Assembly: GCA_963837465.1 (NCBI GenBank)
Contig: CAWINB010000001.1
Location: forward strand, 437,646 to 501,645
Direction of reading: 5' to 3'
Length of the DNA: 64,000 nt
DNA from: Candidatus Doudnabacteria bacterium
GTDB lineage: Bacteria > Patescibacteriota > Doudnabacteria > UBA920
A program made the position numbers and the translations under genes. The notes below the pieces were generated by a model. The model had not been told where the DNA came from, ran no database searches, and worked only from the letters and a program-made list of their open reading frames with translations. Below, in pieces: positions 4,446 to 29,677 of this stretch. Within the stretch, counting starts at the first letter, position 1. Each line of letters opens with the position of its first letter.

Positions 4446-5228
4446 ATGCTGAACCCCCCAAAAATCCTCATCCTCTCCGGCTACGGCCTCAACTGCGAAC
4501 AGGAAACCGCGTTGGCTTTTAATTTGTCCGGCGGGGCTTCGGATATTGTCCATATAAACGATCTAATTGCCGCGCCAAAAAAACTCGCGCGATACCAAAT
4601 CCTGGCAATTCCCGGAGGCTTTTCCTACGGCGATGATTTGGGATCAGGCCGCGCTTACGCCAATAAATTAAACAGCCATTTAAAACAACAGTTGGCGGAT
4701 TTTGCTTCCAAAGACAAACTGGTCATGGGCATTTGCAACGGCTTCCAAATTTTAACCAACCTCGGGCTGCTGCCCGGCGTCCTGACTTTTAACGACAACT
4801 ACCGCTACACCGACCGCTGGGTGGATGTGTCAAGGGTGACCCTTGACACTAGCCCCTGGCTGAAAGGCATTAAAACGCTTTCTTTGCCCATAGCCCACGG
4901 TGAAGGCAAATTCGCGGCCGACGCGAAAACCCTCAAATCCATCCAACAACAAAATATGATTGGTGCTGTATACTATAAGGGTGACGTTTGCGGCTACCAA
5001 AGCCTGCCTCCGAATCCCAACGGCTCTATGCTGGACATAGCTATGCTGACATCGGCAAACGGAAAAATCCTGGGCACTATGCCCCACCCCGAACGCGCCA
5101 TCTTTTTTACCCAAACCCCCGACTGGCCGCTGCAGAAGGAAAAATTAATAAGAGCGGGCAAACTGCTTCCCGAATATGGTCCCGGATTGCAGATTTTTAA
5201 AAATGCCGTGGAATATTTCACCAATTAA
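4446..5228 (+). CDS. purQ: FGAM synthase glutamine amidotransferase subunit PurQ
   Basis: GMCNGFQ catalytic Cys motif, PIAHGEG, MPHPER; TAA stop. Confidence 0.9.
   Translation: MLNPPKILILSGYGLNCEQETALAFNLSGGASDIVHINDLIAAPKKLARYQILAIPGGFSYGDDLGSGRAYANKLNSHLKQQLADFASKDKLVMGICNGFQILTNLGLLPGVLTFNDNYRYTDRWVDVSRVTLDTSPWLKGIKTLSLPIAHGEGKFAADAKTLKSIQQQNMIGAVYYKGDVCGYQSLPPNPNGSMLDIAMLTSANGKILGTMPHPERAIFFTQTPDWPLQKEKLIRAGKLLPEYGPGLQIFKNAVEYFTN
4827..4849. repeat. 23-nt perfect palindrome gtgtcaagggtgacccttgacac inside purQ (encodes DVSRVTLDTS); an identical copy lies at 28960-28982
   Basis: Exact 23/23 identity between two unrelated genes 24 kb apart. Confidence 0.85.
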
Positions 5229-5234
5229 GTATGA

Positions 5235-5396
5235 GAAGCTGTTTAAAAAGTCATTTGGGCCGCAATTCCAGAATGTTTGGCGCCTTGCCGGAAAAAATTT
5301 TTCCGCTTAGCTTTAGGCTAAACGTCAAAATTTGTTTCCGTCAATCCGCGCAAAATTCTGTAATTTCGCCTACAAAGCACTTTTTAAACATCTTCT
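5235..5396 (+). mobile_element. MITE family 1, copy R1 (162 bp; TIR GAAGCTGTTTAAAAAG / CTTTTTAAACATCTTC; flanking TGA/TGA duplication)
   Basis: Near-identical copies at 26685-26845 and 34507-34668 in opposite orientation; 16-nt terminal inverted repeats; 3-bp TNA direct repeats. Confidence 0.8.
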
Positions 5397-5629
5397 GAGA
5401 GAATCTGACCTTATTGAGCGATATGAAGAAAACATAATGCTAGGACTGTGCGATCAAGCCAGCCACACTGGTTTTATGGATGCCTGTACAAATTTTCCAA
5501 AAAACGACCAATACGCCCAATCAATAGTTACTAGAAAAATTAGTATAACAGAGAAAGATAGGCTCATATTGTCCCAGGCGTACCAAGATGGTTACGCAAG
5601 AGGATTAATTAAAAAAGCAAGAATCGACA

Positions 5630-5737
5630 ATGAACGACTTAAATGAAAAATGCGGAGTCTTTGGGATTTTTGGTAAGAACTTGGACGTCAGCCGTCTGAC
5701 TTTTTACGGTTTGTTCGCGCTGCAGCATCGGGGTTAG
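5630..5737 (+). pseudogene. purF: purF N-terminal segment (propeptide MNDLNEK, then Cys1 nucleophile CGVFGIFG…LQHRG) ending at an in-frame TAG (5735-5737) where homologues have Gln
   Basis: Same frame as the downstream purF ORF; aligns with B. subtilis PurF MLAEIKGLNEECGVFGIWG…LQHRGQEGAG. Confidence 0.7.
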
Positions 5738-5755
5738 GAGTCATCGGGAATTGCC

Positions 5756-7051
5756 GTGTCCGATGGCAACCATATGGATGCTTACAAAAATATGGGTTTG
5801 GTAACACAGGTTTACAAAGAAGAAACCATTCAAAACCTTAAAGGGCATATTGCCATTGGCCACAATCGATATTCTACATCCGAAGGCTCGCACATCAAAC
5901 ACGCCCAACCAATAGTCATAAACAACCAACTGGCCCTGGCGCACAACGGCAATTTGCCATCGGTAAAAGCTTTAAAAGAATTTTTGGAAGCCAAGGATAT
6001 CGCCACAAATGACTGCAGTGATTCCGAGCTGATGGCAAAAGCGCTGGGTTATTATTTGGAACATGGCAACTCCATTAAAGACGCGGTTATAAAAGCTTAT
6101 CCGCTTTTTACCGGCGCTTTTTGTTTGACAATTTTAACCAAAGATTGTTTGGTGGCCGTAAGGGATACTTATGGCGTGCGACCGCTTTCCCTTGGCAAAA
6201 TAAATGGCGACGCGACTGTTGTAGCTTCGGAAACCTGCGCTTTCCACACCGTGGGCGCGGAATTTACGCGCGAAGTCCAGCCGGGTGAAATGGTTATTGT
6301 CAGCGACAAGGGAATTGAATCGGTGCAGATAGAACCGTCCCAAACCAAACTGGATATTTTTGAATTTGTTTATTTCGCGCGGCCCGACAGCCAAATTCTG
6401 GGCAAATCCGTTTACCAGGTCCGGCGCGACTCCGGCATCCAGCTGGCCAGGGAATGCCCCATTGATGCCGACATAATCGTACCCGTGCCGGAAACCGCGC
6501 TGCCGGTTGCCACCGGCTACAGCAAGCAAAGCGGCATTCCCATGGAAATGGCTTTGGTAAAAAACCGCTACATCCACCGCACTTTCATCCAGCCCGAACA
6601 GCACAGCCGCGACCTGGGGGTAAAATTAAAGCTCACTCCCCTGCCCGAAATTTTATCCGGCAAAAAAATTGTGGTAATGGACGACTCTATTGTAAGGGGC
6701 ACCACCTCGCGTCAATTGGTAAAAATGTTGTTTGAGGCGGGATGCGAGGAAGTCCATATGCTCATAAGTTCGCCGCCGGTAAAATTTCCGGACTTTTACG
6801 GCATAGACACGCCCAAGCAAAAAGATTTAATCGCCGCGCGTAAAACCGTGGAAGAAATCAGGATGTATTTGGGCGCGACTTCGCTTTACTTTTTATCTTT
6901 AAAAGGCTTAATAGAAGCCACCGGACTTTCCGAAGATGTTTTTTGCACCTCCTGCTTCACCGGAAAATATCCCATAGATTTACTGGAACGCGAGACTGAA
7001 GTTCAGCAGCCGACATACGCGGAAATTAAATCTCCGGGCGCTTTATTTTAA
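5756..7051 (+). CDS. purF: Amidophosphoribosyltransferase PurF, the portion downstream of the in-frame TAG; the functional gene would be 5630..7051
   Basis: ESSGIAVSDG…IGHNRYSTSEG (Ntn glutaminase domain) and C-terminal PRTase domain (VVMDDSIVRGTT); the ORF track starts at a GTG directly after the TAG. Confidence 0.85.
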   Translation: MSDGNHMDAYKNMGLVTQVYKEETIQNLKGHIAIGHNRYSTSEGSHIKHAQPIVINNQLALAHNGNLPSVKALKEFLEAKDIATNDCSDSELMAKALGYYLEHGNSIKDAVIKAYPLFTGAFCLTILTKDCLVAVRDTYGVRPLSLGKINGDATVVASETCAFHTVGAEFTREVQPGEMVIVSDKGIESVQIEPSQTKLDIFEFVYFARPDSQILGKSVYQVRRDSGIQLARECPIDADIIVPVPETALPVATGYSKQSGIPMEMALVKNRYIHRTFIQPEQHSRDLGVKLKLTPLPEILSGKKIVVMDDSIVRGTTSRQLVKMLFEAGCEEVHMLISSPPVKFPDFYGIDTPKQKDLIAARKTVEEIRMYLGATSLYFLSLKGLIEATGLSEDVFCTSCFTGKYPIDLLERETEVQQPTYAEIKSPGALF

Positions 7052-7127
7052 CTTAAAAGCGCCATCCCGGAATTTTAAGGGCTGTTAAAATATCCAGGAT
7101 CCAGAACCATACAACATAGTTATAAAT

Positions 7128-7724
7128 ATGCAAATTGTAATCCTAATTTCCAACGCCGGAACCGGCACTAATTTGCAGGCTATCATTAACGGCATTGGGG
7201 CCGGCCAAATAAAAGCCCGAATCGCGGCGGTGATTTGCGACAAAGCCGGCGCGCCGGGACTGGAGCGCGCTGAAAAAAGTAATTTACCCGCAAAAATTTG
7301 CCCGAAAAAAGAGGAATTGCTGCCGCTGCTAAAAAAACTTAATCCCGATTACATTTGCCTGGCCGGCTGGAAACAAATAATTCTGGACGAAGTTATTTTG
7401 GCTTTTCCAAACAAAATTTTAAATCTGCATCCGGGCTTAATTCCCGACAGAGCCGATGGTAGCGTAAAAAATCCCGACGGCACAGAGGGGCTTTGGAACA
7501 AAGGCATGTTGACCACAAAAGCTATTCAAAATTTCTTGGACCAAAAGGCCACGTTCGCCGGCTCATCCATCCATTTTTTATCTCTGGAATTTGATTTTGG
7601 CCCGGTGCTGGGCAGGTGTTTTGAAAAAATTGCGGCTGGCGATACGGTTGATGATTTGTATAAAAGACTGAAGGAAAAAGAAAACCGGTTGTACGTGGAA
7701 GTTTTAACAAAGCTTAACGGGTGA
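7128..7724 (+). CDS. purN: Phosphoribosylglycinamide formyltransferase PurN (with an insertion of about 18 aa)
   Basis: N-terminal MQIVILISNAGTGTNLQAII and NLHPGLIP motifs; TGA stop. Confidence 0.8.
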   Translation: MQIVILISNAGTGTNLQAIINGIGAGQIKARIAAVICDKAGAPGLERAEKSNLPAKICPKKEELLPLLKKLNPDYICLAGWKQIILDEVILAFPNKILNLHPGLIPDRADGSVKNPDGTEGLWNKGMLTTKAIQNFLDQKATFAGSSIHFLSLEFDFGPVLGRCFEKIAAGDTVDDLYKRLKEKENRLYVEVLTKLNG

Positions 7725-7757
7725 TAATTTTGTCAATTTCTTAATTTTTGTTCAATT

Positions 7758-9164
7758 ATGGCAAATATTCTTGTCATCGGCTCGGGAGGGCGCGAACACG
7801 CTTTGGCGTGGAAGCTTAAGCAGTCGCCCAAGGTCGGCAAAATTTTTGCGGCGCCGGGGAACGGCGGCAGTTCTTTGCTGGCGGAAAATGTGGAGATTAA
7901 AGCTACAGACGTTTTGGCTTTGGCCGACTGGGCGGAAAACAATAAAATTGATTTTACGGTGGTCGGGCCGGATGACGCCCTGGCTTTGGGTATTGTGGAT
8001 GAATTCCAAAAAAGAGGCCTTAAAATTTGGGGGCCGGGCAAAGCCGCGGCTAAAATTGAATCCAGTAAGGCTTTTGCCAAAAAGCTGATGGAAGAAAATG
8101 ATATTCCGACGGCGGAGTTTAAGGTTTTTAATGATTACGGTCAAGCATTGTTATACGTTCAAAGCCATTTCCAAGGTAGCGTGCCCATCGCGTATCAAAG
8201 TATGGGACAAGCTTATGGGCGTCCTAGTTCGCCCATAAATGGGCACGCTACAAGACCCGTTGTCATCAAAGCCTCGGGCCTGGCCTTGGGCAAAGGCGTT
8301 GCCGTGTGCGAAACCTTGGACGAGGCCAAAAACTTTTTGCAAGACGTTATGGTCAATAAAATTTTCGGCGACTCCGGAAGTGAAGTCGTCATAGAAGAAT
8401 TTTTACAGGGCCGGGAATTTTCCGTCCACGCTTTTTGCGACGGCAAAAACTTTAAGCTTTTTCCGTCGGCGCAGGATCATAAAACCATTTACGACAATGA
8501 CCAAGGCCCCAACACCGGCGGTATGGGCGCCATTGCTCCGGTGCCGTGGGTTACAAATGACCTGATGAAACAAGTATCGTCGGAGATTGTAAAACCCGCG
8601 CTGGAAGGTTTAAAAAATCTGGGCTCGCCGTTTGTGGGGTTATTATATCCGGGATTGATGGCAATAACAGCCGATAAATCGGCTAACTACGCGGCTTTTG
8701 TAGTCAGCCCATTTATGGGCTCAATCAAAATTATAGAATTCAACGCCCGTTTCGGCGACCCCGAAACCCAAAGCTATATGCGCCTGCTGAAAACAGATCT
8801 TTACGATATTTTAGAAGCCTGCGTCAACGGCAGTTTGGACAAAATCAATATTGAGTGGTCAAAAAAGTCGGCCTGCTGCATAGTTTTAGCCAGCGGCGGC
8901 TACCCCGGCGAATACAAAAAAGGTTTGCCCATTACGGGAATTGCGGACGCGGAAAAAATGGATGATATCATAATTTTCCACGCCGGAACGGCAATCAAAG
9001 ATGGTCAATTAGTTACCAACGGTGGCCGCGTTTTAGGAGTCACGGCAATTGCAGATGATTTACAGACAGCGCTCAACAAAGCCTACACAGCCATCAAGCT
9101 AATCAATTTTAAAGGAATGCGATACAGAAGCGATATCGGGCAAAAAACTTTAACCTATGTTTGA
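7758..9164 (+). CDS. purD: Phosphoribosylamine-glycine ligase PurD carrying two in-frame palindromic insertions
   Basis: MANILVIGSGGREHALAWKL, VIKASGLALGKGV, GPNTGGMGA, EFNARFGDPETQ; TGA stop overlapping the next ATG (ATGTTTGA). Confidence 0.9.
   Translation: MANILVIGSGGREHALAWKLKQSPKVGKIFAAPGNGGSSLLAENVEIKATDVLALADWAENNKIDFTVVGPDDALALGIVDEFQKRGLKIWGPGKAAAKIESSKAFAKKLMEENDIPTAEFKVFNDYGQALLYVQSHFQGSVPIAYQSMGQAYGRPSSPINGHATRPVVIKASGLALGKGVAVCETLDEAKNFLQDVMVNKIFGDSGSEVVIEEFLQGREFSVHAFCDGKNFKLFPSAQDHKTIYDNDQGPNTGGMGAIAPVPWVTNDLMKQVSSEIVKPALEGLKNLGSPFVGLLYPGLMAITADKSANYAAFVVSPFMGSIKIIEFNARFGDPETQSYMRLLKTDLYDILEACVNGSLDKINIEWSKKSACCIVLASGGYPGEYKKGLPITGIADAEKMDDIIIFHAGTAIKDGQLVTNGGRVLGVTAIADDLQTALNKAYTAIKLINFKGMRYRSDIGQKTLTYV
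8176..8251. repeat. Divergent family A-like palindromic element in-frame inside purD (arms gtagcgtgcccat / atgggcacgctac; inner gcccataaatgggc)
   Basis: 13-nt perfect inverted arms; encodes about 25 extra residues relative to E. coli PurD just before the VIKADG motif. Confidence 0.7.
8667..8722. repeat. Family A palindromic element in-frame inside purD, in right-half then left-half order (aacagccgataaatcggctaactac … gtagtcagcccatttatgggct); encodes AITADKSANYAAFVVSPFMGS
   Basis: About 20-aa insertion between the conserved GLM and KVIEFN(C/A)RFGDPETQ motifs. Confidence 0.8.
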
Positions 9165-10008
9165 GCTTACCGAACAAATAAAAATTTGCAAAAAAACCCG
9201 GGAGCTGGCGTCTCAAACCGTGGCCGCGGTTTTATCTGAAAATAATTTGTCGGAAACGGGATTCTGCGCGAAATTAGCCCAAAGGCTTTATCAAAAACCC
9301 AATTGGGACCAAGGCTGGTACAGTCCGCCGCCAAAAGGCCTCGCGGCGCTGTTCGGTGTTGGGCGCGTGGCTTACGACAGCTTGCGCAAAGAAGAATTCT
9401 GGCCCAAAAACCGGTTTATTTTTTCCGGCGGTTCACTGGGTTACGTTTATGCCTCGCCAGTTAACAGGCTTAGCGGGATAATCGGCGATTTTGGCCTTAC
9501 AATTTATAAAGGCGCTGACCAAAAAATTATCAATCATATAAAAGTCTGTCTGGATATTACGGAAAAAACCGCCGAATACGCGCGGGCGGGTATGGAACTC
9601 CGGGAGGTTTACAATTACTGCCAGAAGCTGATGGCCGAAAAAGGCCTCAACAATAAAAGGATGCTGGCATATAATGACAAAACCAAAACTAACATAGGGC
9701 ATACTGTCCCCTGGAGTCATAAGCGGCCTTTGGATGAAGAATTTAAGATAATTGAAGATTCAAATTTTGAAAAACTTAAAGATCTCATCAGCTCAAAGCG
9801 GATAACATTAAACGCGCGAGAAACTTTTAAAATTCCCCCAACCATTGCTTTTACAATTGAACCTCGTATGGAAAACGACGAGAGTCCACTTGTCTCATTT
9901 CATATGATTGTGGCTTTTAAAGATGGCAAAAAAGAAATCCTGGCAAATTTCAAACCGGTTTTTCAGGCCTTAAATATGGATAAATTAATTGTCAGCAAGT
10001 ATGATTAA
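9157..10008 (+). CDS. Divergent M24-family (methionine aminopeptidase / pita-bread fold) protein of unknown role inside the pur operon
   Basis: Weak motif matches NIGHTVPW (HGIGH-like) and IAFTIEPRM (FTIEP); 283 aa; start overlaps the purD stop. Confidence 0.35.
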   Translation: MFELTEQIKICKKTRELASQTVAAVLSENNLSETGFCAKLAQRLYQKPNWDQGWYSPPPKGLAALFGVGRVAYDSLRKEEFWPKNRFIFSGGSLGYVYASPVNRLSGIIGDFGLTIYKGADQKIINHIKVCLDITEKTAEYARAGMELREVYNYCQKLMAEKGLNNKRMLAYNDKTKTNIGHTVPWSHKRPLDEEFKIIEDSNFEKLKDLISSKRITLNARETFKIPPTIAFTIEPRMENDESPLVSFHMIVAFKDGKKEILANFKPVFQALNMDKLIVSKYD

Positions 10009-10672
10009 ACTCATTGCTTTTGACTGGAATGGCACTTTGCTTTCGGATGCCGCCCTTACCGTTAAAGCCGAAAATAAGGCTTTAACAGCTGTAGGGGTAA
10101 AGCCAATAACCCTGACAGAATTTAGGGAAGCTTTTGACATACCTATAACAAAATATTGGAAAAATATCGGTTTCTCGGACAAATTCGCTAAAGCCAACCT
10201 CCGGACTCTTGAAGACGTGTTTCATTTAAACTATAAAAAAATGACGGCCAAGGCAGAAACACGCTCGGGGGTCAGGGAAATTTTAAAATGGTTGAAAAAA
10301 ATAAGAATTAAAACGGTTATTTACAGCAACCACGACATACCGGACATTAAAAGACATTTGTCCCGACTAAAATTAAGCGGACTCCTGGATGAGGTCTTAG
10401 CCAACAAAGCGGACGAGCGGCTGCAGGTTTTTATAAGGCATAAGGGTGAAAAGCTTCACCGTTACTGCCTGAAAAATAAAATTAAGCCTCACGAAATAAT
10501 TTCCGTTGGAGATATGGAAGAGGAAATAGACATTGCCAAAAAATACGGCTACCACAGTGTCGCGCTTACCGGAGGTTTTAATTCCACCGTCCAGCTAAAA
10601 AGTAAGCATCCTGACTTTTTAATCAACAACATGAGAGAACTTATAGGGATTATCAAAAAGCTTAATTCCTGA
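10001..10672 (+). CDS. HAD-superfamily hydrolase
   Basis: Motif I FDWNGTL and motif IV GDMEEEID; ATG 10001 overlaps the upstream stop (ATGATTAA); TGA stop. Confidence 0.65.
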   Translation: MIKLIAFDWNGTLLSDAALTVKAENKALTAVGVKPITLTEFREAFDIPITKYWKNIGFSDKFAKANLRTLEDVFHLNYKKMTAKAETRSGVREILKWLKKIRIKTVIYSNHDIPDIKRHLSRLKLSGLLDEVLANKADERLQVFIRHKGEKLHRYCLKNKIKPHEIISVGDMEEEIDIAKKYGYHSVALTGGFNSTVQLKSKHPDFLINNMRELIGIIKKLNS

Positions 10673-10716
10673 TAATATAAAGTTATAAATCTAATATTCT
10701 AAATCTTACATCTTAT

Positions 10717-11229
10717 ATGAATCCACTTGTAGGAATTCTAATGGGTAGTGACAGCGACCTTAATGTGATGCGGGAGGCGGCCAAGGTTTTGGAGGAATTT
10801 GGCGTGGGTTATGAAATAACCGTTTGTTCGGCCCATCGCACCCCGGAACGGGCGCATAAGTACGCGTCTACGGCAGTCGAAAGAGGCCTTAAAGTTATTG
10901 TTGCCAGCGCTGGCGGCGCGGCGCATTTAGCTGGAGTTATGGCGGCCAATACAACTCTGCCTGTTATTGGCGTGCCTATCAATTGGAAACTTAATGGCCT
11001 GGATTCCCTGCTATCCACCGCGCAAATGCCGCCGGGCGTTCCTGTGGCTACAGTAGGAATAGACGCCGGCAAAAACGCCGGACTGTTAGCCGTGCAAATT
11101 TTGGCAACGGCCGATGAAGCTTTAAGCAAAAAGCTTACCGACTACAAAACCAAAATGGCGGAACAAATAAACGCCAAAGCTAAAAAATTGGAAGAGATGG
11201 GGTATAAAAAATATTTGGAATCAAAGTAA
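10717..11229 (+). CDS. purE: AIR carboxylase / N5-CAIR mutase PurE
   Basis: GILMGSDSD…CSAHRTP…[18 protein letters not shown]. Confidence 0.9.
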
Positions 11230-11231
11230 AT

Positions 11232-11297
11232 GTAGTTAGCCCTATTTTCTGGGCTGTCCCCTACCATAAATTAACAGCCGATAAATCGGCTAACTAC
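11232..11297. repeat. Family A palindromic element, copy filling the purE-purM spacer
   Basis: gtagttagccctattttctgggctgtcc…aacagccgataaatcggctaactac. Confidence 0.85.
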
Positions 11298-11306
11298 AAA
11301 AACACG

Positions 11307-12440
11307 ATGACTAAATCAGAATACGCCAAATCCGGAGTGGACTATACTGTTATGGAGCCTTTTAAGATGGCTATGATCGCGGCCGGGAAGAAGACTTTAA
11401 AGTTCCCCAATAAGCGGAGGGTTTTTATTAACGAAGACGCGGCGCACGCCCACGGCGCCGTGTTTGAATACAGAGGCGCAAGTCCGCACATTTGGTGCCA
11501 GACCCAGGAAGATTTAGGGAACAAAAACTGGATAGCGGAATGGATGTATGAAAGGACGGGAAAAAGTTATTATGATTCCATAGCGATTGATACCGCGCTA
11601 ATTGTGGTCAACGATGTTATTGCCCAGGGCGCTATGCCCGTGGTTTTTACGGACCAACTGGAAGCATCGGAAAGTTCCTGGTATGCCGACGAAAAACGGG
11701 CTAAAGATTTCGCGGACGGATTTTTAAAAATCTGCGAGGAAGTCGGTATGGCTTTGCCGGCCGGCGAAAGCGCCAGTTGCACTTATTTGATTAACCCCAA
11801 GGCTCCGGTAAAACAAATTGCCACATTAAGCGGCTCGGTTACAGGAATTGTCGCGCCCAAACAAAATTTAATTACGGGACAAAAATTGCAGGCAGGAGAT
11901 CACATCATAGCGGTGTCATCATCTGGCCTGCACGCCAACGGAATTTCTTTGGTCATAAAAAAGGCCATGGAGTTGCCGGAGCAGTTTTTAACGAAAATTG
12001 ATACTGACGGCATGCCCCGGCATGCCGCTACGATCGGAGAACAAGCTTTAATCCCCACGCGATCTTACGTTAAGTTAATAGAAACGCTTTTGGAAAACCG
12101 GATTAAAATCCACGCCTTGCTCCCCGGCACCGGCGACGGCGTGGGCAAAATCGCCTTTGACCACCGCAGCTTTACTTACCGTATACATTCCTGGCTGCCT
12201 GTGCCGCCGCTTATGCGCTATTTTAAAGATGTGATAGGAATTAACATCCAGGACTGCCTAAAAACCTTTAACTGGGGTGTCGGCTACTATATTTTTACTC
12301 CGGCCGAGGAAGTTGATAGAATACTTAAGCTGGGTAAGCAGGCTGGTTACGAACTCGCGGATGTGGGAATTGTAGAAGCCGGAAAAAGACAAACAATTTT
12401 TGAACCTGAGAATATAACATTAAACCCTCCGGGGGAGTAA
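11307..12440 (+). CDS. purM: AIR synthase-related (PurM-like) protein
   Basis: YAKSGVDY and IAIDTALIVVNDVIAQGAMP align with PurM SYKDAGVDI / [20 protein letters not shown]; divergent, 377 aa. Confidence 0.65.
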   Translation: MTKSEYAKSGVDYTVMEPFKMAMIAAGKKTLKFPNKRRVFINEDAAHAHGAVFEYRGASPHIWCQTQEDLGNKNWIAEWMYERTGKSYYDSIAIDTALIVVNDVIAQGAMPVVFTDQLEASESSWYADEKRAKDFADGFLKICEEVGMALPAGESASCTYLINPKAPVKQIATLSGSVTGIVAPKQNLITGQKLQAGDHIIAVSSSGLHANGISLVIKKAMELPEQFLTKIDTDGMPRHAATIGEQALIPTRSYVKLIETLLENRIKIHALLPGTGDGVGKIAFDHRSFTYRIHSWLPVPPLMRYFKDVIGINIQDCLKTFNWGVGYYIFTPAEEVDRILKLGKQAGYELADVGIVEAGKRQTIFEPENITLNPPGE

Positions 12441-12448
12441 AAGTATCT

Positions 12449-12509
12449 GGTATTTTGTATAGTATTTAGCATGGAGACGCTTTGATACTAAATACTATAT
12501 ACAAAATAC
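12449..12509. repeat. AT-rich long hairpin (about 22-bp arms) in the purM-purC spacer
   Basis: ggtattttgtatagtatttagcat … atactaaatactatatacaaaatac; no U-tract follows. Confidence 0.6.
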
Positions 12510-12524
12510 TTAATACTACAAAAT

Positions 12525-13526
12525 ATGGACAAACAAACCATTGAAAAAAACTTAGACAGGGTGTTGGAAAAAACAGTTTTTTCCGCCAAAGGCGGATCCG
12601 CCTCCGGCGGAAAAAACCTTAACCTCGGCCAACGGCGGCAAGGGAAGGTGCGGGATATTTATACCCAAGCTGATAAGATTATTTTAGTATCAACCGATCG
12701 CTATAGCGCTTTTGACCGAAACCTGGCGCTTATTCCATTTAAGGGCCAAGTATTAACCCAGGTCAGCAAGTGGTGGTTTGAGCAGACCAAGGATATTATC
12801 CAGAACCATCTTATAGAAAGTCCGGACCCTAACGTGGTGGTGGTAAAAAAATGCTCGGTCATTCCAATAGAAATGGTGGTAAGGGGTTACATTACGGGCG
12901 TGACCGGCACATCTTTATGGACTTTGTACCAAAACGGCCAGCGGGATTTTGGCGACTTTACATTGCCGGACGGGATGAAAAAAAACCAAAAATTGGACAA
13001 GCCGGTGCTGACTCCCACGACCAAATCCGACGAGCACGACAAACCGCTGACGACCAAAGAAATAATTGAACAAAAAATCGTGCCCAAAGAACTGTGGAAA
13101 CAATTAGCAAGCACGGCGACCAAACTTTTTATCCGTGGTCAGGAGCTGGCTTTACAGCACGGGTTAATTTTAGTGGATACTAAGTATGAGTTTGGATTGG
13201 CTGATGATGGTAGGCTGATGTTAATAGACGAAATCCACACGCCGGATTCATCGCGCTACTGGCAGGCGGATTCCTACCAGGCCAGAATAGACGAAGGAAA
13301 AGAACCGCAGAATTTTGACAAAGAATTTTTAAGGTTGTGGTTTAAGGAAAATTCAAACCCCTACGAAGACAAAATTTTACCAAAAGCTCCCTCAGATATG
13401 ATAGCGGAACTTTCTTCCCGCTACATCCAGATTTTTGAACAAATTACCGGGGAAAAATTTGAGGCTGATTTGGACACGCCGATTGTGGAGAGGATAGAAA
13501 AGAATTTAAGACGTTTCGGAGTGTAG
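12525..13526 (+). CDS. purC: SAICAR synthetase PurC (long form)
   Basis: GKVRDIY, VVRGYITG, LILVDTKYEFG motifs; the TAG stop is supplied by the first bases of a family A element. Confidence 0.85.
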   Translation: MDKQTIEKNLDRVLEKTVFSAKGGSASGGKNLNLGQRRQGKVRDIYTQADKIILVSTDRYSAFDRNLALIPFKGQVLTQVSKWWFEQTKDIIQNHLIESPDPNVVVVKKCSVIPIEMVVRGYITGVTGTSLWTLYQNGQRDFGDFTLPDGMKKNQKLDKPVLTPTTKSDEHDKPLTTKEIIEQKIVPKELWKQLASTATKLFIRGQELALQHGLILVDTKYEFGLADDGRLMLIDEIHTPDSSRYWQADSYQARIDEGKEPQNFDKEFLRLWFKENSNPYEDKILPKAPSDMIAELSSRYIQIFEQITGEKFEADLDTPIVERIEKNLRRFGV

Positions 13527-13603
13527 TTAGCCCATTTATGGGCTGTTGAAATATTACTGTTGTTATTTAATAGTTTTGAACAGCCCATAAATGGGCTAAC
13601 TAC
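13523..13603. repeat. Family A palindromic element filling the purC-purB spacer (it overlaps the purC stop codon)
   Basis: gtagttagcccatttatgggctgtt…aacagcccataaatgggctaactac. Confidence 0.85.
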
Positions 13604-21715: not shown

Positions 21716-21732
21716 TGGCGACCGATTAATGT

Positions 21733-22359: not shown

Positions 22360-22370
22360 AGCAATATCTT

Positions 22371-22396
22371 AATGCAAATGATTTGCATTTATCAAG
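22371..22396. promoter_or_regulatory. Putative Zur box 3, AATGCAAATGATTTGCATTTATCAAG (perfect 9-1-9 palindrome), in the divergent promoter region
   Basis: aatgcaaat g atttgcatt is a perfect inverted repeat. Confidence 0.55.
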
Positions 22397-22427
22397 AGGC
22401 TGGAGTATAGTCAAATCAGGAGGATTA

Positions 22428-22598: not shown

Positions 22599-22653
22599 GC
22601 CACGGCCGCCCTATCTTCACCCACTTGGTAATTTATGGTAGTATTTAAAAGCT

Positions 22654-23082: not shown

Positions 23083-23235
23083 GAAGCTGTTTTAAAAACA
23101 AATGGACAGTTTTTTGGAAACGGATAACACTGATAATTACGCATTCTATCCGTGTTATCTGTTTTAAATCCGTGTCATCTGTGTTTATGTTCTGTACAAA
23201 CCTGTCCCAAAATAAGTTCACAATTATTTTATATG

Positions 23236-23685: not shown

Positions 23686-23688
23686 CAA

Positions 23689-24582
23689 ATGCAAAGTACT
23701 TTAAATCAAAAAGTGTCCCTTGCTAATATCCTGGGCAAAGCCCTGGGGATTTTATGGCTGATTGACGGGCTGCTGCAGCTGCAGCCAAAAATGTTCGGCG
23801 CGGATTTCATTAACAATGTGCTGGCGCCAAACCTAAGCGGCCAACCCGGGTTTATGCGCGCGTTAATTGATTTTGGCATACGCGTATTTAGTTTCAACAT
23901 CGCGACTGCCAACTGGATTGCGGCGTTGCTACAAATAGCCATTGGGGTTTTATTATTGTTTCCCATTGCGGGCAAAAAATTTAAAGCGGGTTTGTATTTA
24001 TCCATTGTCTGGGGATTAATAGTCTGGATATTTGGCGAGGGCCTGGGCAATCTTCTCACGGGTTCCGCCAGCTTTTACACCGGAGCGCCGGGTTCGGCTT
24101 TGGTTTACGCGCTCATCGCGACATTCCTTTTGATGCCGGAAAAGATTGACCGCAAATTTTTTGCCAAAATCGCGGCGGCAATATTATTTATGGGCGCGGC
24201 TTTACAGCTCCAGCTGATGTTTTGGAATTCTGATGGAACACAAACGATGTTTCAACTCTCCGCTTCCGATCCCGTACACGCGATAAACTCTTTGCCCGCT
24301 ATTATTTCCAATTCCCTATCCGCTCATCCAATTGAGTTTAACTGGCTCTTGATTATTCTGCCTCTGTTGTTAGCAATCGCGCTATGGCTCAAACCCAATA
24401 AAACAACAGCCGCCACAACCATCATCTTCCTGTTTTTTGTCTGGTGGCTGGGCCAGGATTTCGGCGGCCTCTCAACAATTTGGCTTGGAACCGCCACCGA
24501 CCCAAACACCGCCCCGCTTATAATGCTGCTTGTGCTACCTTTGTTCCTGCGGAATGATGACACTCCCCGTAAACAAGACTAA
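23689..24582 (+). CDS. Integral membrane protein of unknown function
   Basis: Multiple hydrophobic helices. Confidence 0.45.
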   Translation: MQSTLNQKVSLANILGKALGILWLIDGLLQLQPKMFGADFINNVLAPNLSGQPGFMRALIDFGIRVFSFNIATANWIAALLQIAIGVLLLFPIAGKKFKAGLYLSIVWGLIVWIFGEGLGNLLTGSASFYTGAPGSALVYALIATFLLMPEKIDRKFFAKIAAAILFMGAALQLQLMFWNSDGTQTMFQLSASDPVHAINSLPAIISNSLSAHPIEFNWLLIILPLLLAIALWLKPNKTTAATTIIFLFFVWWLGQDFGGLSTIWLGTATDPNTAPLIMLLVLPLFLRNDDTPRKQD

Positions 24583-24656
24583 AATTAGTAAAATTTACCA
24601 ATGAGTAAAATTAGGCAAGGCTTAAAATAATTTTTTCAATAATCAACTTTTCATTT

Positions 24657-24947
24657 ATGGCGTTCCAAGAAAATAAACCACAGCCCCCGCAAAGTGAACA
24701 TGGAGAAATACAAAAACAAGCTCCCGAATCGCAAGAGCAGCGGAAAGAAAGTTTAGGGGACAAAATTAAACGCTTCGCCGGACGAATAAGCGAGCGTTTC
24801 GGTCAATTTGGGCAAAGAAAGCAATCTGCTGAATCTAATTTGGGCGCTGTTGTTGAATGGGCGCGTGAAAACAACGGGTTAATTTACAAAGAGGACGGGC
24901 ATACAAAACTTGCCGGACAAACTATCAAAGAACTGTTAGGCGAATAG
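24657..24947 (+). CDS. Hypothetical hydrophilic protein
   Basis: ORF with TAG stop. Confidence 0.4.
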   Translation: MAFQENKPQPPQSEHGEIQKQAPESQEQRKESLGDKIKRFAGRISERFGQFGQRKQSAESNLGAVVEWARENNGLIYKEDGHTKLAGQTIKELLGE

Positions 24948-24976
24948 CCCAACTTTATTAACTAACAAACTTTTTT

Positions 24977-25420
24977 ATGTCAAAAAAACGATTTGCCGAA
25001 GCCGCTTTTATGGTCGGTAGTTTATTGGCTGGGGAAGCCGCTGGCCAAAATAAGCAAGCCGAAACTAAAGCACCCCAAAAAACCGAACAAACAAAAAAGG
25101 GAGAAACAGCAGTAGACCCCGAAATTAAAGCAGCCCTTGAGGAGCAGGCAATAAGATTAAAAAATCCGGAAAATGCAAAAGACCCGGGACTGGTTAAATT
25201 TATTGAGCAATCGGCTTATAAGAAAATTGCGAAAATCGTTGTTGAAAGATTGGGCAAATATAACAAACCTGGACTTTTAACAGACCAGCTACAAGCAGAC
25301 CTAAAAGTTGAAGCAAAAAAATTAGGCTTGACTTATGATATGCTCGGCAAATGTATTGAAGCAGCCGATAGCGATAAAGCTTTTTTATACTCTCTTGCTA
25401 AATTAATTCCGATTATATAA
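24977..25420 (+). CDS. Hypothetical protein whose last about 11 codons are supplied by the IS630 terminal repeat
   Basis: The ORF runs into the IS TIR (…YSLAKLIPII*). Confidence 0.4.
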   Translation: MSKKRFAEAAFMVGSLLAGEAAGQNKQAETKAPQKTEQTKKGETAVDPEIKAALEEQAIRLKNPENAKDPGLVKFIEQSAYKKIAKIVVERLGKYNKPGLLTDQLQADLKVEAKKLGLTYDMLGKCIEAADSDKAFLYSLAKLIPII

Positions 25421-25988
25421 TTTCAAAATTAAGAGTTAATAGTGTTTTAAGCTCCGCTTTGTACTGAGATATGTTTTTAAAGAAATCATGTATGGCGATT
25501 GTAAACTCCTGAAAGGTTTTGTAGTACTTGTTGGCTTTAACTTTCTTTTTCATGAATTTCCAGAGGCGTTCAATCAAGTTTAAGTTGGGAGAATACGGCG
25601 GCAGGAACAACAGCTCAATGCCCAGATGTTTCGCTTCCTCGTTGGCCTGCTTGCTATGGTTGTACTTGGCGTTATCCAGGAAAATGTATATGGTTTTAGC
25701 TTTAGGATAATCTTTTCTGACTTCCCCTAAGAATATTGTCATCATTTGCCCGTCACAGTTATCTTCGGTCGTCAAAATAGTGGGTTTAAAAGCTACGGGG
25801 TTGATAGCGCCAATAACAGTTAATCTTTCCCGGCCGCTGTTTGAAGGAACCTTTTTAGTTTCACTTTTACCTTTAAGTTGCCAGCAGTAGCTATTGTCAG
25901 CATTATGGACCAGGTGAGCGGGGTCTAAAAACAGCACGATGCCTTTGTCTTTATCAGCTTTCTTTATGGTTTTAAAGATTAATTTCAC
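25413..25988 (-). CDS. IS630-family transposase, DDE catalytic part (orfB), in a different frame from orfA
   Basis: DDE-domain-like sequence (…LFLDNAKYNHS…LPPYSPNLNLIE…). Confidence 0.7.
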   Translation of the reverse strand: MKLIFKTIKKADKDKGIVLFLDPAHLVHNADNSYCWQLKGKSETKKVPSNSGRERLTVIGAINPVAFKPTILTTEDNCDGQMMTIFLGEVRKDYPKAKTIYIFLDNAKYNHSKQANEEAKHLGIELLFLPPYSPNLNLIERLWKFMKKKVKANKYYKTFQEFTIAIHDFFKNISQYKAELKTLLTLNFEII

Positions 25989-26029
25989 AAAATCTTCCTG
26001 GGTCTCTCTGTCAGGCGCGCCGCTGGGAA

Positions 26030-26449
26030 CTATATGGGTTTTTTTGTAAGATAAATTGAGTTTTTTTTACAGCAGCGAAACAGCCAGCTTTGTTCCATCT
26101 CAATTGAATATTTTTCCTTAATCCAGGCCTGCATTTCAGCTAAAGTCGTAATAGTGTTGTCTTTTACATCTTGTTTGATTTGGTCTACATAATCATTAAT
26201 TTTTGACTTCCGTTTATCTTTAAATTGTAGCTTGCGTAGTCCCTGTAGTTTCTCGGATTGATAGATTTTTATCCAGTCTGTAATCGTATCCACGCAGACA
26301 TTAAACGCTTCCGCGATCTCCTGATGGTTTTGCCCCTGGTTCAGTAACTTTATGGCCTCCAGACGGCGCAGAACTCTGACATTTTTTTCCTGTTCCTGAA
26401 GTTGTTTAATCTTTTTAAGCTCACTGACGGACAGTTTTATTTGGTACAT
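26030..26449 (-). CDS. IS630-family transposase, N-terminal HTH part (orfA)
   Basis: HTH-rich N-terminus typical of IS630 transposases; a T8/A8 run (26046-26054) near the frame junction. Confidence 0.7.
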   Translation of the reverse strand: MYQIKLSVSELKKIKQLQEQEKNVRVLRRLEAIKLLNQGQNHQEIAEAFNVCVDTITDWIKIYQSEKLQGLRKLQFKDKRKSKINDYVDQIKQDVKDNTITTLAEMQAWIKEKYSIEMEQSWLFRCCKKNSIYLTKKPI

Positions 26450-26684
26450 TTTGTTAGGGTTAAGGCTCTTGGCCTTATTCTAACATTTCGGAATTAATTT
26501 AGCAAGAGAGTATACACAGAGTTCAACTTGATTTAGGGGTTTCGGTAGATGACATAAAAGGGCCACCCAACATTTTCAAAAAAGAATAATCAAACTTTTA
26601 CTAAAAACTTATCCAACTGTTTTACCGCATACCCGTAACTTCCAGCGATTTGCACCCAATCCATAGTTCTATAATCGTCCCTAA

Positions 26685-26845
26685 GAAGATGTTTAAAAAG
26701 TGCTTTGTAGGCGAAATTACAGAATTTTGCGCGGATTGACGGAAACAAATTTTGACGTTTAGCCTAAAGCTAAGCGGAAAAATTTTTTCCGGCAAGGCGC
26801 CAAACATTCCGGAATTGCGGCCCAAATGACTTTTTAAACAGCTTC
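26685..26845 (-). mobile_element. MITE family 1, copy R2 (TAA/TAA duplication)
   Basis: Reverse complement of R1 with terminal GAAGATGTTTAAAAAG / CTTTTTAAACAGCTTC. Confidence 0.8.
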
Positions 26846-27036
26846 TAAGACCGCTCCACAAAAAACATCATCTTTCGTATGATGTTTTTTGTTTGCGCTT
26901 AAAGGCAATTATGACTCTGAGCTTAAAATTATATGGGAGAGCTGTAGTAGGGAATAAATATCGCCTGATTGACTAAAACCGCCAAAAACTATACAATACA
27001 TCCATAAATCCTACCCCGCAGCCGGGGTATATTTTT

Positions 27037-28500
27037 ATGAACGACAGTGTAATTTTGCGCTTCTCCGGCGTTAGTTATGAATATTCCCACAACAAGCCTA
27101 TTTTAACCGAGGCCGGTTTTAGCGTGCGTAACGGAAGCCGCATAACTTTAATGGGGCAAAACGGCGCGGGCAAAAGCACTTTGTTTAAAATGATAACCGG
27201 GGAAATTAAGCCGCCGGAAGGCAGTATTAGCTTTACACCCAAAGATGTTTCCATAGCAATCGCGCGGCAGGTAATGCCCAAGGAATTTTTGGATTTAAGC
27301 TTAAGGGATTATTTTGCCACGGCGTTTACTGAAACTAAATATAATCTGGATAAATTAATCCGCGAAGTTTTTGAAGTGGTTAACGTTAATCTGCCGCTGG
27401 ACAAAAAGATTAAAGAGTTTTCCGGCGGACAGCAGGCCAGGTTGCTTTTGGCTTACGCGCTCATCCAAAACCCCGACATTTTACTGCTTGACGAGCCAAC
27501 CAATAATTTGGACGCCCAGGGCATTGAACATCTTACCGGATTTTTAATGATGTACGAAAAAACCGTGCTGGTTATTTCCCACGACGCGGATTTTTTAAAC
27601 GCCTTTTCCGACGGCGTGCTTTATTTGGATGTCTTTACCCACAAAATTGAACAGTACAGCGGCAATTATTACGATGTAGTGGAAGAAATAAAAAACCGCA
27701 TTGAGCGGGAAAATTTGCAGAACGCGCGCATGCAGACGGAAATTAAGGAAAAGCGCCAGCAGTCCGAAGTCTTTGCCCACAAAGGCGGCAAACTGCGCGC
27801 CGTGGCCAAACGGATGCGCGAGGCAGCGGAAGAAGCGGAAGAAAGCATGGTGGAAGTGCGGCAGGAAGACAAAACTATCCGCGAATTTGAAATTCCGGTT
27901 CAGGAATTCGACCCGTTTTTTGACGGAAAAATTCTGGAATTCAGCTCCATCTCCGCCATTAAAAACGGCGAAGTAACCAGCAAAGACTTTGCTTTTACAT
28001 TACGCAAAAATACCCATGTTATAATTTCCGGCCCCAACGGCATTGGCAAATCCACTCTGCTGGAAAAGATATCGTCGGGAAAAGGAACCGGATTTACCAT
28101 CGGCAAAGACATCAGGCTGGGCTACTACAAACAGGATTTTTCCAATTTTAATTTCGAGCAAAAAGCCATTGACGCGCTAAAGGAAGTTATGGAAAAATTC
28201 GACGAGCATGCTTTGCGTTCTACCGCAGCGGGTTTCTTGCTGGACGGCAAATTACTGGATCAACCAATCGCCGCCCTGTCCGAAGGACAAAAAGGCCTGC
28301 TGTCCTTTTGTCGCCTTGTACTTATGAAACCGGGGCTACTGATTTTGGACGAACCCACCAACCACATCAACTTCCGCCATCTCCCCATAATCGCCCAAGC
28401 CTTAACCTCCTACAAAGGCGCAATGCTTATGGTTTCCCATATCCCCGATTTTGTTTCGCAGATTCGAACAGATGAAGCAATAGACTTAAGCTCTGTGTAA
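27037..28500 (+). CDS. ABC-F family ATPase (two ABC cassettes, no transmembrane domain)
   Basis: Two Walker A sites (GQNGAGKST; GPNGIGKST) and two signature motifs; charged interdomain linker. Confidence 0.8.
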   Translation: MNDSVILRFSGVSYEYSHNKPILTEAGFSVRNGSRITLMGQNGAGKSTLFKMITGEIKPPEGSISFTPKDVSIAIARQVMPKEFLDLSLRDYFATAFTETKYNLDKLIREVFEVVNVNLPLDKKIKEFSGGQQARLLLAYALIQNPDILLLDEPTNNLDAQGIEHLTGFLMMYEKTVLVISHDADFLNAFSDGVLYLDVFTHKIEQYSGNYYDVVEEIKNRIERENLQNARMQTEIKEKRQQSEVFAHKGGKLRAVAKRMREAAEEAEESMVEVRQEDKTIREFEIPVQEFDPFFDGKILEFSSISAIKNGEVTSKDFAFTLRKNTHVIISGPNGIGKSTLLEKISSGKGTGFTIGKDIRLGYYKQDFSNFNFEQKAIDALKEVMEKFDEHALRSTAAGFLLDGKLLDQPIAALSEGQKGLLSFCRLVLMKPGLLILDEPTNHINFRHLPIIAQALTSYKGAMLMVSHIPDFVSQIRTDEAIDLSSV

Positions 28501-28579
28501 ATAAACAAAACTGCCCCAAAAGGGGCAGTTTTTTCTAAGCCCTCACCAAATTTTTAAAAATCTACTGTATATAAGACAA

Positions 28580-29677
28580 CTATTTATCTTTTCTAATCCT
28601 CATCCGTACACGATTCCACCACATAATAACTTTTTGGAAATAAATATGGGACCCGGGAACGTAGCGCCAAAGAGCCCAACCTAAAATTACCAGGAAGGCC
28701 GTCCAGGCAATACCTTCCAAAAAACCATCTTCATGGTGATGGTAGCGGCTATTACCGTCATAGCGATAAGCAAAGCGCGTGGCTTTTAGCGGTGACATAA
28801 CAAGAGCATAAACACAAAGCCAGCCTAAAATGGCTATCCAAAGCGGGATGGCCGCGGGAATTACCAGAGTGTAAATTACTCCTTTGCTGACTAAAGTCAC
28901 AAGACCAATAACCCAAAATACCGAGACAAGGCCGATAAGCAAAGCCAAAAATGGGGAGAGTGTCAAGGGTGACCCTTGACACTGGGACCTGGTTTGCGCA
29001 CGGTATTCCTGTTTCATTTCGCGTTTTTCTTCCCGCGTGTGTTGTTTCCACTGTTGTTTCCATTGTTTTACCTGGCCGCTGCCTTTGAATTTTTGGTATT
29101 CGCTTCGGGCGCGGTTAATAAATTCCTGGGCCGTAAAAGGAGCGCCGAAGGCCGCGGCTTTTTCAGCCGAAGTGTTGGCGTGAGGAATAACCAGAAGCAT
29201 AATAAAATAAATCAACGCCCCGAAGCCGTGAGTCAACACCGTGAGCGCCACAAAAATTATTCTGACTAAAGTAACGTCCGCGTCAAAATAAGCGGCCAGT
29301 CCGGTACAAACGCCAAACAGCATAGCGCCTTCACGGACCCGGTAAAGTCGTTTTGCGCCCGAATCCTGCGGGCGTTGGCCGGCGGAAGCATTTTCATCAC
29401 CAGCAGTCCCCTCTTGTTTTTCGTCAGCCTGCACGGGACCCATTTCCTTGATAACCTCCTCGGCCCGCGCCTGGCTGACTACCGTTTTGCGCGGTCCCAC
29501 AAACCTGTCCAACTTTTCCCCCAAAGCTTGCTCCAAATCTGCCATAACCTCGGACTTGTCCGGATCATTTTGTAATTTTTTTTCGGCCGAACTTAAATAA
29601 TCCCGCAACGCGTTAAAGCCCCCTTCTTCCACCTGGAAAGCACGACCGTTTAAATTTACTGTTATAACTTTGTTCAT
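28580..29677 (-). CDS. PspC-domain membrane protein
   Basis: LYRVREGAMLFGVCTGLAAYFDADVTLVRIIFV PspC motif; contains the 23-nt palindrome at 28960-28982. Confidence 0.7.
   Translation of the reverse strand: MNKVITVNLNGRAFQVEEGGFNALRDYLSSAEKKLQNDPDKSEVMADLEQALGEKLDRFVGPRKTVVSQARAEEVIKEMGPVQADEKQEGTAGDENASAGQRPQDSGAKRLYRVREGAMLFGVCTGLAAYFDADVTLVRIIFVALTVLTHGFGALIYFIMLLVIPHANTSAEKAAAFGAPFTAQEFINRARSEYQKFKGSGQVKQWKQQWKQHTREEKREMKQEYRAQTRSQCQGSPLTLSPFLALLIGLVSVFWVIGLVTLVSKGVIYTLVIPAAIPLWIAILGWLCVYALVMSPLKATRFAYRYDGNSRYHHHEDGFLEGIAWTAFLVILGWALWRYVPGSHIYFQKVIMWWNRVRMRIRKDK

Follow-up and report, generated by a model that had tools for sequence, protein, structure and literature searches.

A perfect palindrome of 23 nucleotides (nt) is present twice, base for base, in a 64,000-nt stretch of the genome of a Candidatus Doudnabacteria bacterium (GenBank assembly GCA_963837465.1, contig CAWINB010000001.1, positions 437,646 to 501,645; hereafter the window), once in purQ and once in a gene for a PspC-domain membrane protein. 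The palindrome, which we have named REP-A, belongs to a repeat family of the candidate phyla radiation (CPR, Patescibacteria), is associated with the gene of a small REP-associated tyrosine transposase (RAYT), recurs in frame inside housekeeping genes and is conserved in purQ at the level of the nucleotides. We read it, with a probability of about 0.8, as the repetitive extragenic palindrome (REP) that belongs, in a Doudnabacteria-like CPR bacterium, to a REP/RAYT system or 'REPtron', spread by RAYT and filtered to the open reading frame.

Two identical palindromes in the window

Exact searching found GTGTCAAGGGTGACCCTTGACAC at positions 4827-4849 and 28960-28982, with the central G on the plus strand in both copies (Table 1), and thereby confirmed the coordinates at which a sequence-only reading of the window had reported an identical, in-frame 23-mer in purQ and in the PspC-domain gene. 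No further match was found in the 64-kb window when up to three mismatches were allowed, and none arose in 100 dinucleotide-preserving shuffles of the window, in agreement with the claim of that reading that 23/23 identity is beyond chance. The 23-mer forms a hairpin of two 10-nt arms and a 3-nt loop (10+3+10), which becomes a perfect palindrome of 11+1+11 if T and A in the loop pair as well; the copy in the PspC-domain gene pairs one base further out (28959-28983). As single-stranded DNA (ssDNA) the purQ copy has a predicted folding energy of -10.5 kcal/mol (z = -4.9) and the other copy one of -11.3 kcal/mol, and the z-scores of the three hairpins predicted in the window (purQ, PspC-domain gene and a longer palindrome in purL, described below) range from -4.9 to -8.1; the G+C content of the window is 45.9%. 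The two genes translate the same DNA in different frames, as ...WVD VSRVTLDT SPW... in PurQ and as ...RSQ CQGSPLTL SPF... in the PspC-domain protein.

Table 1. Positions in the window of the palindromes, their host genes and the GTAG-headed repeats
Feature	Position	Strand	Remarks
purL open reading frame	1112..4366	+	AIRS, AIRS_C and FGAR-AT_linker domains; start codon provisional; host of the family-B insertion
Family-B insertion	2200..2253	+	54 nt, 18 codons, in frame in purL; encodes QRNKGNPSAALGFPLLAG
purQ (FGAM synthase glutaminase subunit)	4446..5228	+	Pfam GATase_5, E = 6.7e-71; host of REP-A copy 1
REP-A copy 1	4827..4849	.	10-bp stems, loop TGA; in frame in purQ; VSRVTLDT, residues 128-135
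PspC-domain membrane protein gene	28580..29677	-	Pfam PspC, E = 3.3e-20; host of REP-A copy 2
REP-A copy 2	28959..28983	.	in frame in the minus-strand PspC-domain gene; (Q)CQGSPLTL
GTAG-headed copies	923, 1340, 1378, 1599, 4373, 4410, 8230, 8669, 8700, 11276, 13523, 13582		

That the match arose by coincidence, reflects a motif shared by the proteins or is an artefact of assembly is scarcely credible. The peptide VSRVTLDT is indeed conserved in some PurQ orthologues, as a shared motif would be, but in the window the palindrome is translated in one frame in purQ and in another in the PspC-domain gene, and the same DNA stands in non-coding positions and in at least ten unrelated genes, while coincidence is at odds with the empty result of the shuffles. 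An independent Logan assembly of run ERR10755945 (contig L043) has identical purQ DNA, palindrome included, so that misassembly, a concern of the sequence-only reading, is excluded; the orthologous purQ position also holds the palindrome in three other metagenome-assembled genomes (MAGs; L005, L006 and L023). That reading had further named an outcome that would speak against a mobile element, namely a 23-mer unique to these two genes with orthologues conserving the peptide; instead there are further copies elsewhere, and purQ orthologues that lack the palindrome.

Half-sites GTGTCAAGGG are not enriched in the window beyond the two copies, and for this reason an explanation by motif density (an uptake sequence or a regulator site) was dropped; a DNA uptake sequence would need about one copy per kb, against the two copies in 64 kb seen here. 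A weak third 'copy' at 53560-53592 (67% identity) was taken as chance, and a search of the whole window against Rfam at gathering thresholds gave no match.

REP-A copies in other genomes

The purL-purQ-purF DNA of the window shows 75-79% identity to Candidatus Doudnabacteria MAGs and to MAG MFD03726.bin.1.241; the window itself lies outside the GTDB representative set. Scanning 185,579 species-representative genomes for GTGTCAAGGGNNNCCCTTGACAC, for which about one match would be expected by chance according to our own estimate, identified 45 copies at 39 loci, nearly all of them in CPR/Patescibacteria (Doudnabacteria, Zambryskibacteria, Vogelbacteria, Saccharibacteria, Paceibacterota and Minisyncoccia). 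The two outliers are an Azotimanducaceae MAG (L004), in which the REP stem is located about 90 nt from a RAYT homologue, and a Prevotellaceae MAG (L007); the presence of the stem in these non-CPR MAGs could be due to horizontal transfer or to a binning error. A scan of viral contigs for REP-A gave no match. Three related genomes carry seven to eight exact-stem copies each.

The 10-bp stem is the same everywhere, and it is the 3-nt loop that is specific to the genome (TGA/TCA, CGA/TCG or TTC/GAA). All seven copies of MFD03726 have the loop TGA/TCA, six of the eight copies of Doudnabacteria MAG_CO250 have CGA/TCG, and TTC/GAA is found in 7/7 copies of Zambryskibacteria SZUA-15 and in 4/4 of one Saccharibacteria MAG. 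Copies of the Doudnabacteria type are flanked by TA...TA (of 48 flanks, 35 have T at -2 and 40 have A at -1), and those of the other lineages by AAA...TTT. Because both kinds of flank extend the symmetry, the conserved unit is a perfect palindrome of 27-29 nt. Partial tandem re-duplications of a REP arm (CCCTTGACAC or CTTGACAC) adjoin full copies at three loci (L019 5567-5620, L014 717-760 and L038 7640-7675).

The TA flanks raise a different origin for the palindrome, as the remnant (a solo terminal repeat or a footprint resembling a miniature inverted-repeat transposable element, MITE) of a TA-targeting DDE transposon such as IS630/Tc1, with TA as the target-site duplication. We hold this to be very improbable. 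TA does stand on both sides of most Doudnabacteria-type copies, and when target-site duplications were sought, TA and a single 7-nt case were all that emerged, with an exact 2-nt flanking repeat in 14 copies; however, TA...TA can equally be read as an extension of the palindrome, and the AAA...TTT flanks elsewhere, which also extend it, cannot be a duplication. Moreover no DDE transposase or parent insertion sequence (IS) was seen beside the copies, at least six loci having a Y1 transposase instead, and the insertion of 23 nt plus a 2-nt duplication would put a gene out of frame, which sits badly with the many intragenic copies.

A RAYT gene bracketed by REP-A

At two loci (L001 and L011) a pair of REP-A copies about 675 nt apart brackets an open reading frame (ORF) of 207-209 amino acids (aa), the product of which scores 34.6 bits against Pfam Y1_Tnp (gathering cut-off 23). 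The HUH histidines H80 and H82 and the motif Y140-I-H-x-N144-P145 are invariant in 66 homologues. Comparison of the family profile with PDB gave as best match 4ER8, in which E. coli TnpA_REP is seen in complex with a REP hairpin (PMC3479197); this match was weak (E = 0.052) and aligned YIHLNP with YIYINP, and a phmmer search of PDB with the RAYT sequence gave no match. The AlphaFold model of the protein (pLDDT 89.5, pTM 0.87) has 4ER8_A as its best Foldseek match (E = 6.7e-7), and the transposases of ISDra2, IS608 and IS200 rank after it (matches 2-19). Homologues of RAYT were detected by tblastn in eight of the 39 REP-A loci. The palindrome flanks the RAYT ORF on both sides, at a distance of 3-35 nt, in L040, L001, L011 and L034; in L018 and L004 it is present on one side. 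No tnpB was noted beside the RAYT ORF in the three closest loci.

A 207-aa RAYT (P0134) that is 77% identical to the L011 protein is recorded on a contig of 699,532 bp, and the PurQ (P0001) and PspC-domain protein (P0241) of the window are likewise recorded on 699,532-bp contigs from the same sources. P0134 is carried by Logan contig L040, which derives, as does the purQ contig L043, from run ERR10755945. This RAYT gene is thus very probably located in the window's own genome, outside the window. Its ORF occupies positions 1608-2231 of L040, and the window 23-mer in exact reverse complement, GTGTCAAGGGTCACCCTTGACAC, is found at 1551-1573 and 2231-2253, i.e., 35 nt upstream and 3 nt downstream of the ORF. 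The 23-mer is the cognate REP of this RAYT, and the known copies in the organism of the window are the two in the window and the two at the RAYT gene.

Genes for adenylosuccinate synthase (purA) or IMP dehydrogenase abut the RAYT ORF in L001 and L040. In L040 the adjacent gene for adenylosuccinate synthase (...VKGHP*) terminates at a TGA that belongs to the upstream REP copy, and the TA flank and first G of the downstream copy provide the TAG stop of RAYT itself. In L001 RAYT likewise adjoins an adenylosuccinate-synthase-like gene, and this placement suggests a conserved, vertically inherited position.

Intragenic copies and the single open frame

About 20 of the 47 copies (the 45 from the scan and the two of the window), or some 40%, lie deep inside long ORFs, which departs from the extragenic location that counts among the marks of a REP and is a share far above that usual for 'extragenic' palindromes. 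CPR genomes are densely coding, and a share of 40% is for this reason a depletion relative to random insertion. All ten host ORFs tested were recognisable housekeeping genes, for NAD-dependent DNA ligase (ligA), an ABC transporter, RecJ, the DNA polymerase III alpha subunit (dnaE), CysRS (cysS, twice), Tgt, MiaA, a class-I glutamine amidotransferase (GATase) and TruB. Translation gives VSR[VAG][TAP]LDT for about 19 of the 20 copies deep within ORFs. The canonical unit, TA + 23 nt + TA, has 27 nt and hence nine codons. One of its frames is closed in either orientation by the TGA within CC-TTGACA-C (CCTTGACAC), and a second opens with TAG (the TA flank and the G) wherever the canonical TA flank is present; the only open frame reads VSRVxLDT and, through the palindromic symmetry, is identical for both orientations. 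Surviving copies are in frame because the 27-nt unit has stops in two of its three frames. The copy in the PspC-domain gene uses the second, usually closed frame, which is kept open by an upstream flank of CAG instead of TAG on the gene strand.

In CysRS, a Zambryskibacteria MAG (L036 2023-2045) and a Saccharibacteria MAG (L030 1681-1703) both carry VSRVPLDT at a shared site, the inter-domain linker after the catalytic domain, in proteins that are 41% identical. In the Saccharibacteria gene the insertion is clean, 30 nt in length and delimited by a direct repeat of 7 nt (AGCATCT), and this points to a separate event of fairly recent date.

The distribution of the copies also bears on the alternative that the palindrome is a useful signal of the host, such as a terminator working in both directions, a hairpin that stabilises RNA or a site bound by a dimeric regulator, and that the adjacency to RAYT is incidental. 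TTGACA is present on both strands of the palindrome, the Zambryskibacteria and Saccharibacteria copies have A-runs and T-runs as in intrinsic terminators, the stem is conserved over deep CPR lineages and, in purQ, beyond what the protein requires, and physiological roles of REPs have been reviewed (PMC3733652). Yet both window copies lie inside ORFs and are without the T-run of an intrinsic terminator, some two fifths of all copies are in housekeeping genes, where a terminator would be harmful, the lack of half-site enrichment and of any Rfam match in the window offers it no help, and it is unlikely to be by accident that the palindrome directly brackets the RAYT ORF in at least four genomes. 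We consider this alternative improbable as a full account, and it is compatible with spread by RAYT, since classical REPs have also been co-opted for host functions.

The purQ site and the PurQ loop

In the baseline of 120 PurQ homologues the region of the palindrome reads RWVD-LKIKSN-SPWL, in proteins of 255-257 aa, and about 14 of the 120 have segments resembling VSRVTLDT. At the DNA level an allele without the repeat (L041 and L042) reads GAT TTA AAA ATC AAA AGC AAT TCT CCT TGG, and an allele with it (L006) GAT GTA GTG TCA AGG GTG ACC CTT GAC ACT AGC CCA TGG. The net gain in length over the repeat-free alleles is from +6 nt (window) to +12 nt (L023 and L005), and the repeat-bearing alleles differ from each other by 3-nt indels directly beside an unchanged core. 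A pure addition of 23, 25 or 27 nt was rejected, as it implies an ancestor shorter than every repeat-free allele. The palindrome would thus either have replaced part of the native loop or have been followed by indels that trimmed its flanks, an order of insertion and deletion events that we infer. The picture drawn by the sequence-only reading is supported as to the element and needs correction in this respect: there was no simple addition of 23 nt, the net gain in purQ and in the PspC-domain gene being only 6-12 nt.

Conservation at this site goes beyond the peptide. Among four purQ orthologues of about 76% DNA identity, third-codon positions are identical at seven of eight codons inside the REP and at 69 of 245 elsewhere (binomial P about 8e-4, by our own calculation). 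The purQ of MAG_CO250 has a single substitution, TCA to TCG in the loop (Thr to Ala), that matches the RAYT-flanking copies of the same genome. These observations point to a constraint or a homogenisation acting on the DNA and not on the protein. With the multi-copy family, the RAYT flanking and the intragenic copies, this conservation of purQ DNA supports what the sequence-only reading had proposed, a palindromic element tolerated in frame.

In the AlphaFold model of PurQ (pLDDT 91) residues 128-135 make up the last part of strand 124-130 and the first part of loop 131-143. The loop between RWVD and SPW holds at least six families of inserts across CPR lineages; besides the REP-A peptide these are of the types RIPPLTKGGRGGV, PSLEGRGQGRV, ARSASDEAI...LAMT, SRDPE...WIPD...SGMT and VSKVLFAK...PLTL. 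When three of these other inserts and the 23-mer were examined as DNA, all four were palindromic: the purQ insert of L028 has the palindrome CCCCTCCTTTCAAAGGAGGGG, which is absent from the other loci examined and from the window, L164 has a 123-nt insert with a folding energy of -37.9 kcal/mol, and L165 has two G/C-rich hairpins (-25.0 kcal/mol). In a rough neighbour-joining tree of PurQ the insert types are interleaved with insert-free alleles, and there have therefore been repeated gains, losses or replacements at one loop. The PurQ and CysRS hotspots may reflect either targeting or mere survival in permissive loops.

The copy in the PspC-domain gene

The peptide CQGSPLTL is found in none of 58 aligned orthologues of the PspC-domain protein. 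It falls in a linker, variable in both length and sequence, that immediately precedes a transmembrane helix; there the window protein is only two residues longer than its nearest relatives (58-60% identity). This copy looks lineage-specific and younger than that in purQ.

A second palindrome family in purL

The perfect palindrome of 41 nt at 2207-2247 in purL has 17-nt stems and a 7-nt loop, and its predicted ssDNA hairpin has an energy of -20.9 kcal/mol (z = -8.1). Three purL orthologues (L005, L006 and L028) lack exactly the 54 nt at window positions 2200-2253, and for this reason the segment is a clean in-frame insertion of 18 codons. When metagenomes were scanned strictly for the 41-nt stem there was no match, and a relaxed scan gave mostly unrelated hairpins and one recurrent human-gut locus, together with 13 loci that fit ACAAGGGGAATCC-N13-GGATTCCCCTTGT and have the outer stem and the 13-nt interior length of the window copy. 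A compensatory change is seen in the inner stem of this family, which we call family B, with TAG...CTA in the window versus TTG...CAA in the relatives, and one metagenome has several copies per contig. On contig L158 a family-B copy with CTAC...GTAG flanks, which some other copies have as well, is located 12 nt upstream of the gene of a 203-aa RAYT homologue (MPNHFHFL, AYIHNNP). The copies are mostly intergenic; two others are in long ORFs, and one of these shares the frame of the window copy (HKGNPCAAQGFPLW versus NKGNPSAALGFPLL). We conclude that the 41-nt palindrome is a member of a second REP-like family, distinct in sequence from REP-A. The sequence-only reading had rightly placed it in frame in purL; it is not a one-off, and belongs to this separate repeat family.

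Hairpins at L080 1047-1087 and in L147 combine the outer stem of family B (AAGGGGAATCC) with an inner stem TTGACAC...GTGTCAA, which is the outer-stem motif of REP-A in the opposite arrangement. This combination may be due to chance or to a modular relationship of the two REP families.

Other repeats in the window

A GTAG-headed REP-like family, GTAGTTAGCC[C/G]ATTTAT[C/G]GGCT, has 12 copies within positions 923-13603 (Table 1), many of them as inverted doublets that resemble REPINs (paired REPs). Three are in the purL ORF, three in purD and five are intergenic, and one more, at 13582, overlaps the beginning of purB as that ORF is listed, with a provisional start codon. The family is confined to the purine operon, with no copy in the other 50 kb of the window; related copies occur in the Doudnabacteria loci L005, L024, L029 and L037. 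An intergenic repeat of about 170 nt, present at 5229-5402, 26678-26851 and 34501-34668 in both orientations with 97-98% identity, and in diverged partial form at 42176-42215 and 47483-47594, looks MITE-like. The purL ORF also has a long 'ARRSASDDEAI...LLAMT' insert. In the N-terminal region of purL (about 1830-1970, ORF residues about 240-290) there is a segment 'VIARRSASDDEAILFKSRKKIAASARQSPQLRQGFVGQAGLLAMT', the peptide type of which (ARSASDEAI...LAMT) is the one encoded at the purQ hotspot of other CPR genomes by a long hairpin (L164, -37.9 kcal/mol), and the segment is probably another palindromic in-frame insert. Two more perfect palindromes were noted, cggcatgccCCggcatgccg at 12008-12027, apparently inside a purM-like gene (11307-12440), and the 24-nt cgcctgtggcagctgccacaggcg at 45854-45877, apparently inside an ORF.

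Proposed mechanism and its weak points

If it acts in the manner of E. coli TnpA_REP and of the transposases of IS200/IS605, RAYT would bind the ssDNA hairpin of the palindrome, cut and rejoin it, and in this way would mobilise REP-A copies around the genome or homogenise them. In small, densely coding CPR genomes many copies would land in genes, and selection would keep only those that are in frame in permissive surface loops and linkers, such as the loop after the beta-strand in PurQ or the linker before the transmembrane helix in the PspC-domain protein. The palindrome of purL would behave alike, as an in-frame copy of the second REP-like family.

Several points weigh against this reading. 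The only NCBIfam match of the bracketed protein, REP_Tyr_transpos, scores 35.9, below the equivalog cut-off of 80; its N-terminal motif YFHAYNRG is without the conserved threonine described for RAYTs, and YIHxNP is followed by LQPF and not by (R/K)xG, so that the full motif NP(L/V)(R/K)xG is absent (PMC2817692). Neither a GT(A/G)G head nor a CGTC tag is present in REP-A, and no conserved tetranucleotide was seen further out. No RAYT homologue was found by tblastn in the 64 kb of the window, and the placement of RAYT in the same genome is a strong inference from the 699,532-bp contig records, their common sources and one sequencing run. Copy number is low, with four known copies in the genome of the window and seven to eight in its relatives. 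Classical REPs have tens to hundreds of copies per genome. Catalysis and transposition by RAYT are argued by analogy, and the net gains of 6-12 nt in purQ and in the PspC-domain gene are not explained by simple insertion. For family B, the link to RAYT consists of one short contig, L158; a RAYT-like gene in L154 was rejected as support, as it is flanked by a different palindrome.

If the proposed system is as we describe it, it accounts for odd peptides in CPR proteins (VSRVTLDT, CQGSPLTL, NKGNPSAALGFPLL and others) that could mislead annotation, alignment and phylogeny, and extends REP/RAYT systems to the CPR, where the repeats are about equally frequent within essential genes and in intergenic positions. 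It also supplies a simple rule of survival, a 27-nt unit with a single open frame, and makes the PurQ loop a natural test of site-targeting hairpins versus selective filtering of random insertions. A bolder idea, which we put forward tentatively and regard as doubtful, is that the elements are not just tolerated, that certain surface loops of essential CPR proteins (PurQ RWVD-SPW, the CysRS linker) are colonised repeatedly by unrelated families of hairpins, perhaps as a hairpin already in place attracts further insertions, and that concerted evolution driven by RAYT may hold the intragenic stems to the sequence of the RAYT-flanking copies. If true, REP/RAYT would be a continuing generator of protein-loop variation across the whole radiation, and intragenic REPs might also be a source of DNA or RNA signals within genes.

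Comparison with known systems

IS200/IS605 elements (IS608, ISDra2) are similar in the HUH/Y1 fold, in the recognition of hairpin ends and, by analogy, in ssDNA as the likely substrate. They differ in that REP-A repeats move or persist without the transposase gene, and in that the flanking hairpins of REP-A are identical perfect palindromes and not distinct left and right ends. RPE-1 elements, a type of Rickettsia palindromic element (RPE), are roughly 100-150 bp long and are not known to have an associated transposase, whereas REP-A has 23-27 nt and an identifiable RAYT partner. The likeness lies in in-frame palindromes within apparently functional genes of small genomes (PMC3733652). Closer to REP-A are the intragenic GTAG-/CGTC-tagged REPs, found in genes of known function, many for replication or repair, in Opitutus terrae, Thioalkalivibrio and Rickettsia (R. 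conorii RPE-4 and RPE-6; PMC3733652). They too are short in-frame REPs that add a few amino acids, with replication and repair hosts that correspond to dnaE, ligA and recJ here; in contrast, REP-A has no GTAG/CGTC tag, belongs to another sequence family and is a symmetric 27-mer with one open frame, and one protein loop is recurrently occupied by unrelated palindrome families.

The nearest counterpart is the REP/RAYT system itself. REP-flanked RAYT genes and the co-evolution of REP and RAYT are established (PMC2817692, PMC3116915, PMC5581495), and a group of REPs that are perfect palindromes has been described and studied in Stenotrophomonas and Marinomonas (PMC8266576); in the literature that we searched no paper connecting REP/RAYT systems with CPR genomes was found. 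As in these systems, a small HUH/Y1 transposase gene lies between two copies of a dispersed palindrome of 20-40 nt, the best profile and fold matches of its product are to 4ER8, and the REP sequence varies by genome in step with the RAYT-flanking copies of each genome. Unlike them, REP-A has a CPR/Patescibacteria host, a very low copy number, no GT(A/G)G head, a divergent RAYT of about 207 aa that is below the NCBIfam equivalog cut-off and without some RAYT motifs, about 40% of its copies inside genes, and one 10-bp stem that is common to several CPR classes and not species-specific. None of these features, i.e., host lineage, copy number, missing head, divergent RAYT, intragenic share, shared stem and the hotspot, puts REP-A outside the known REP/RAYT kind.

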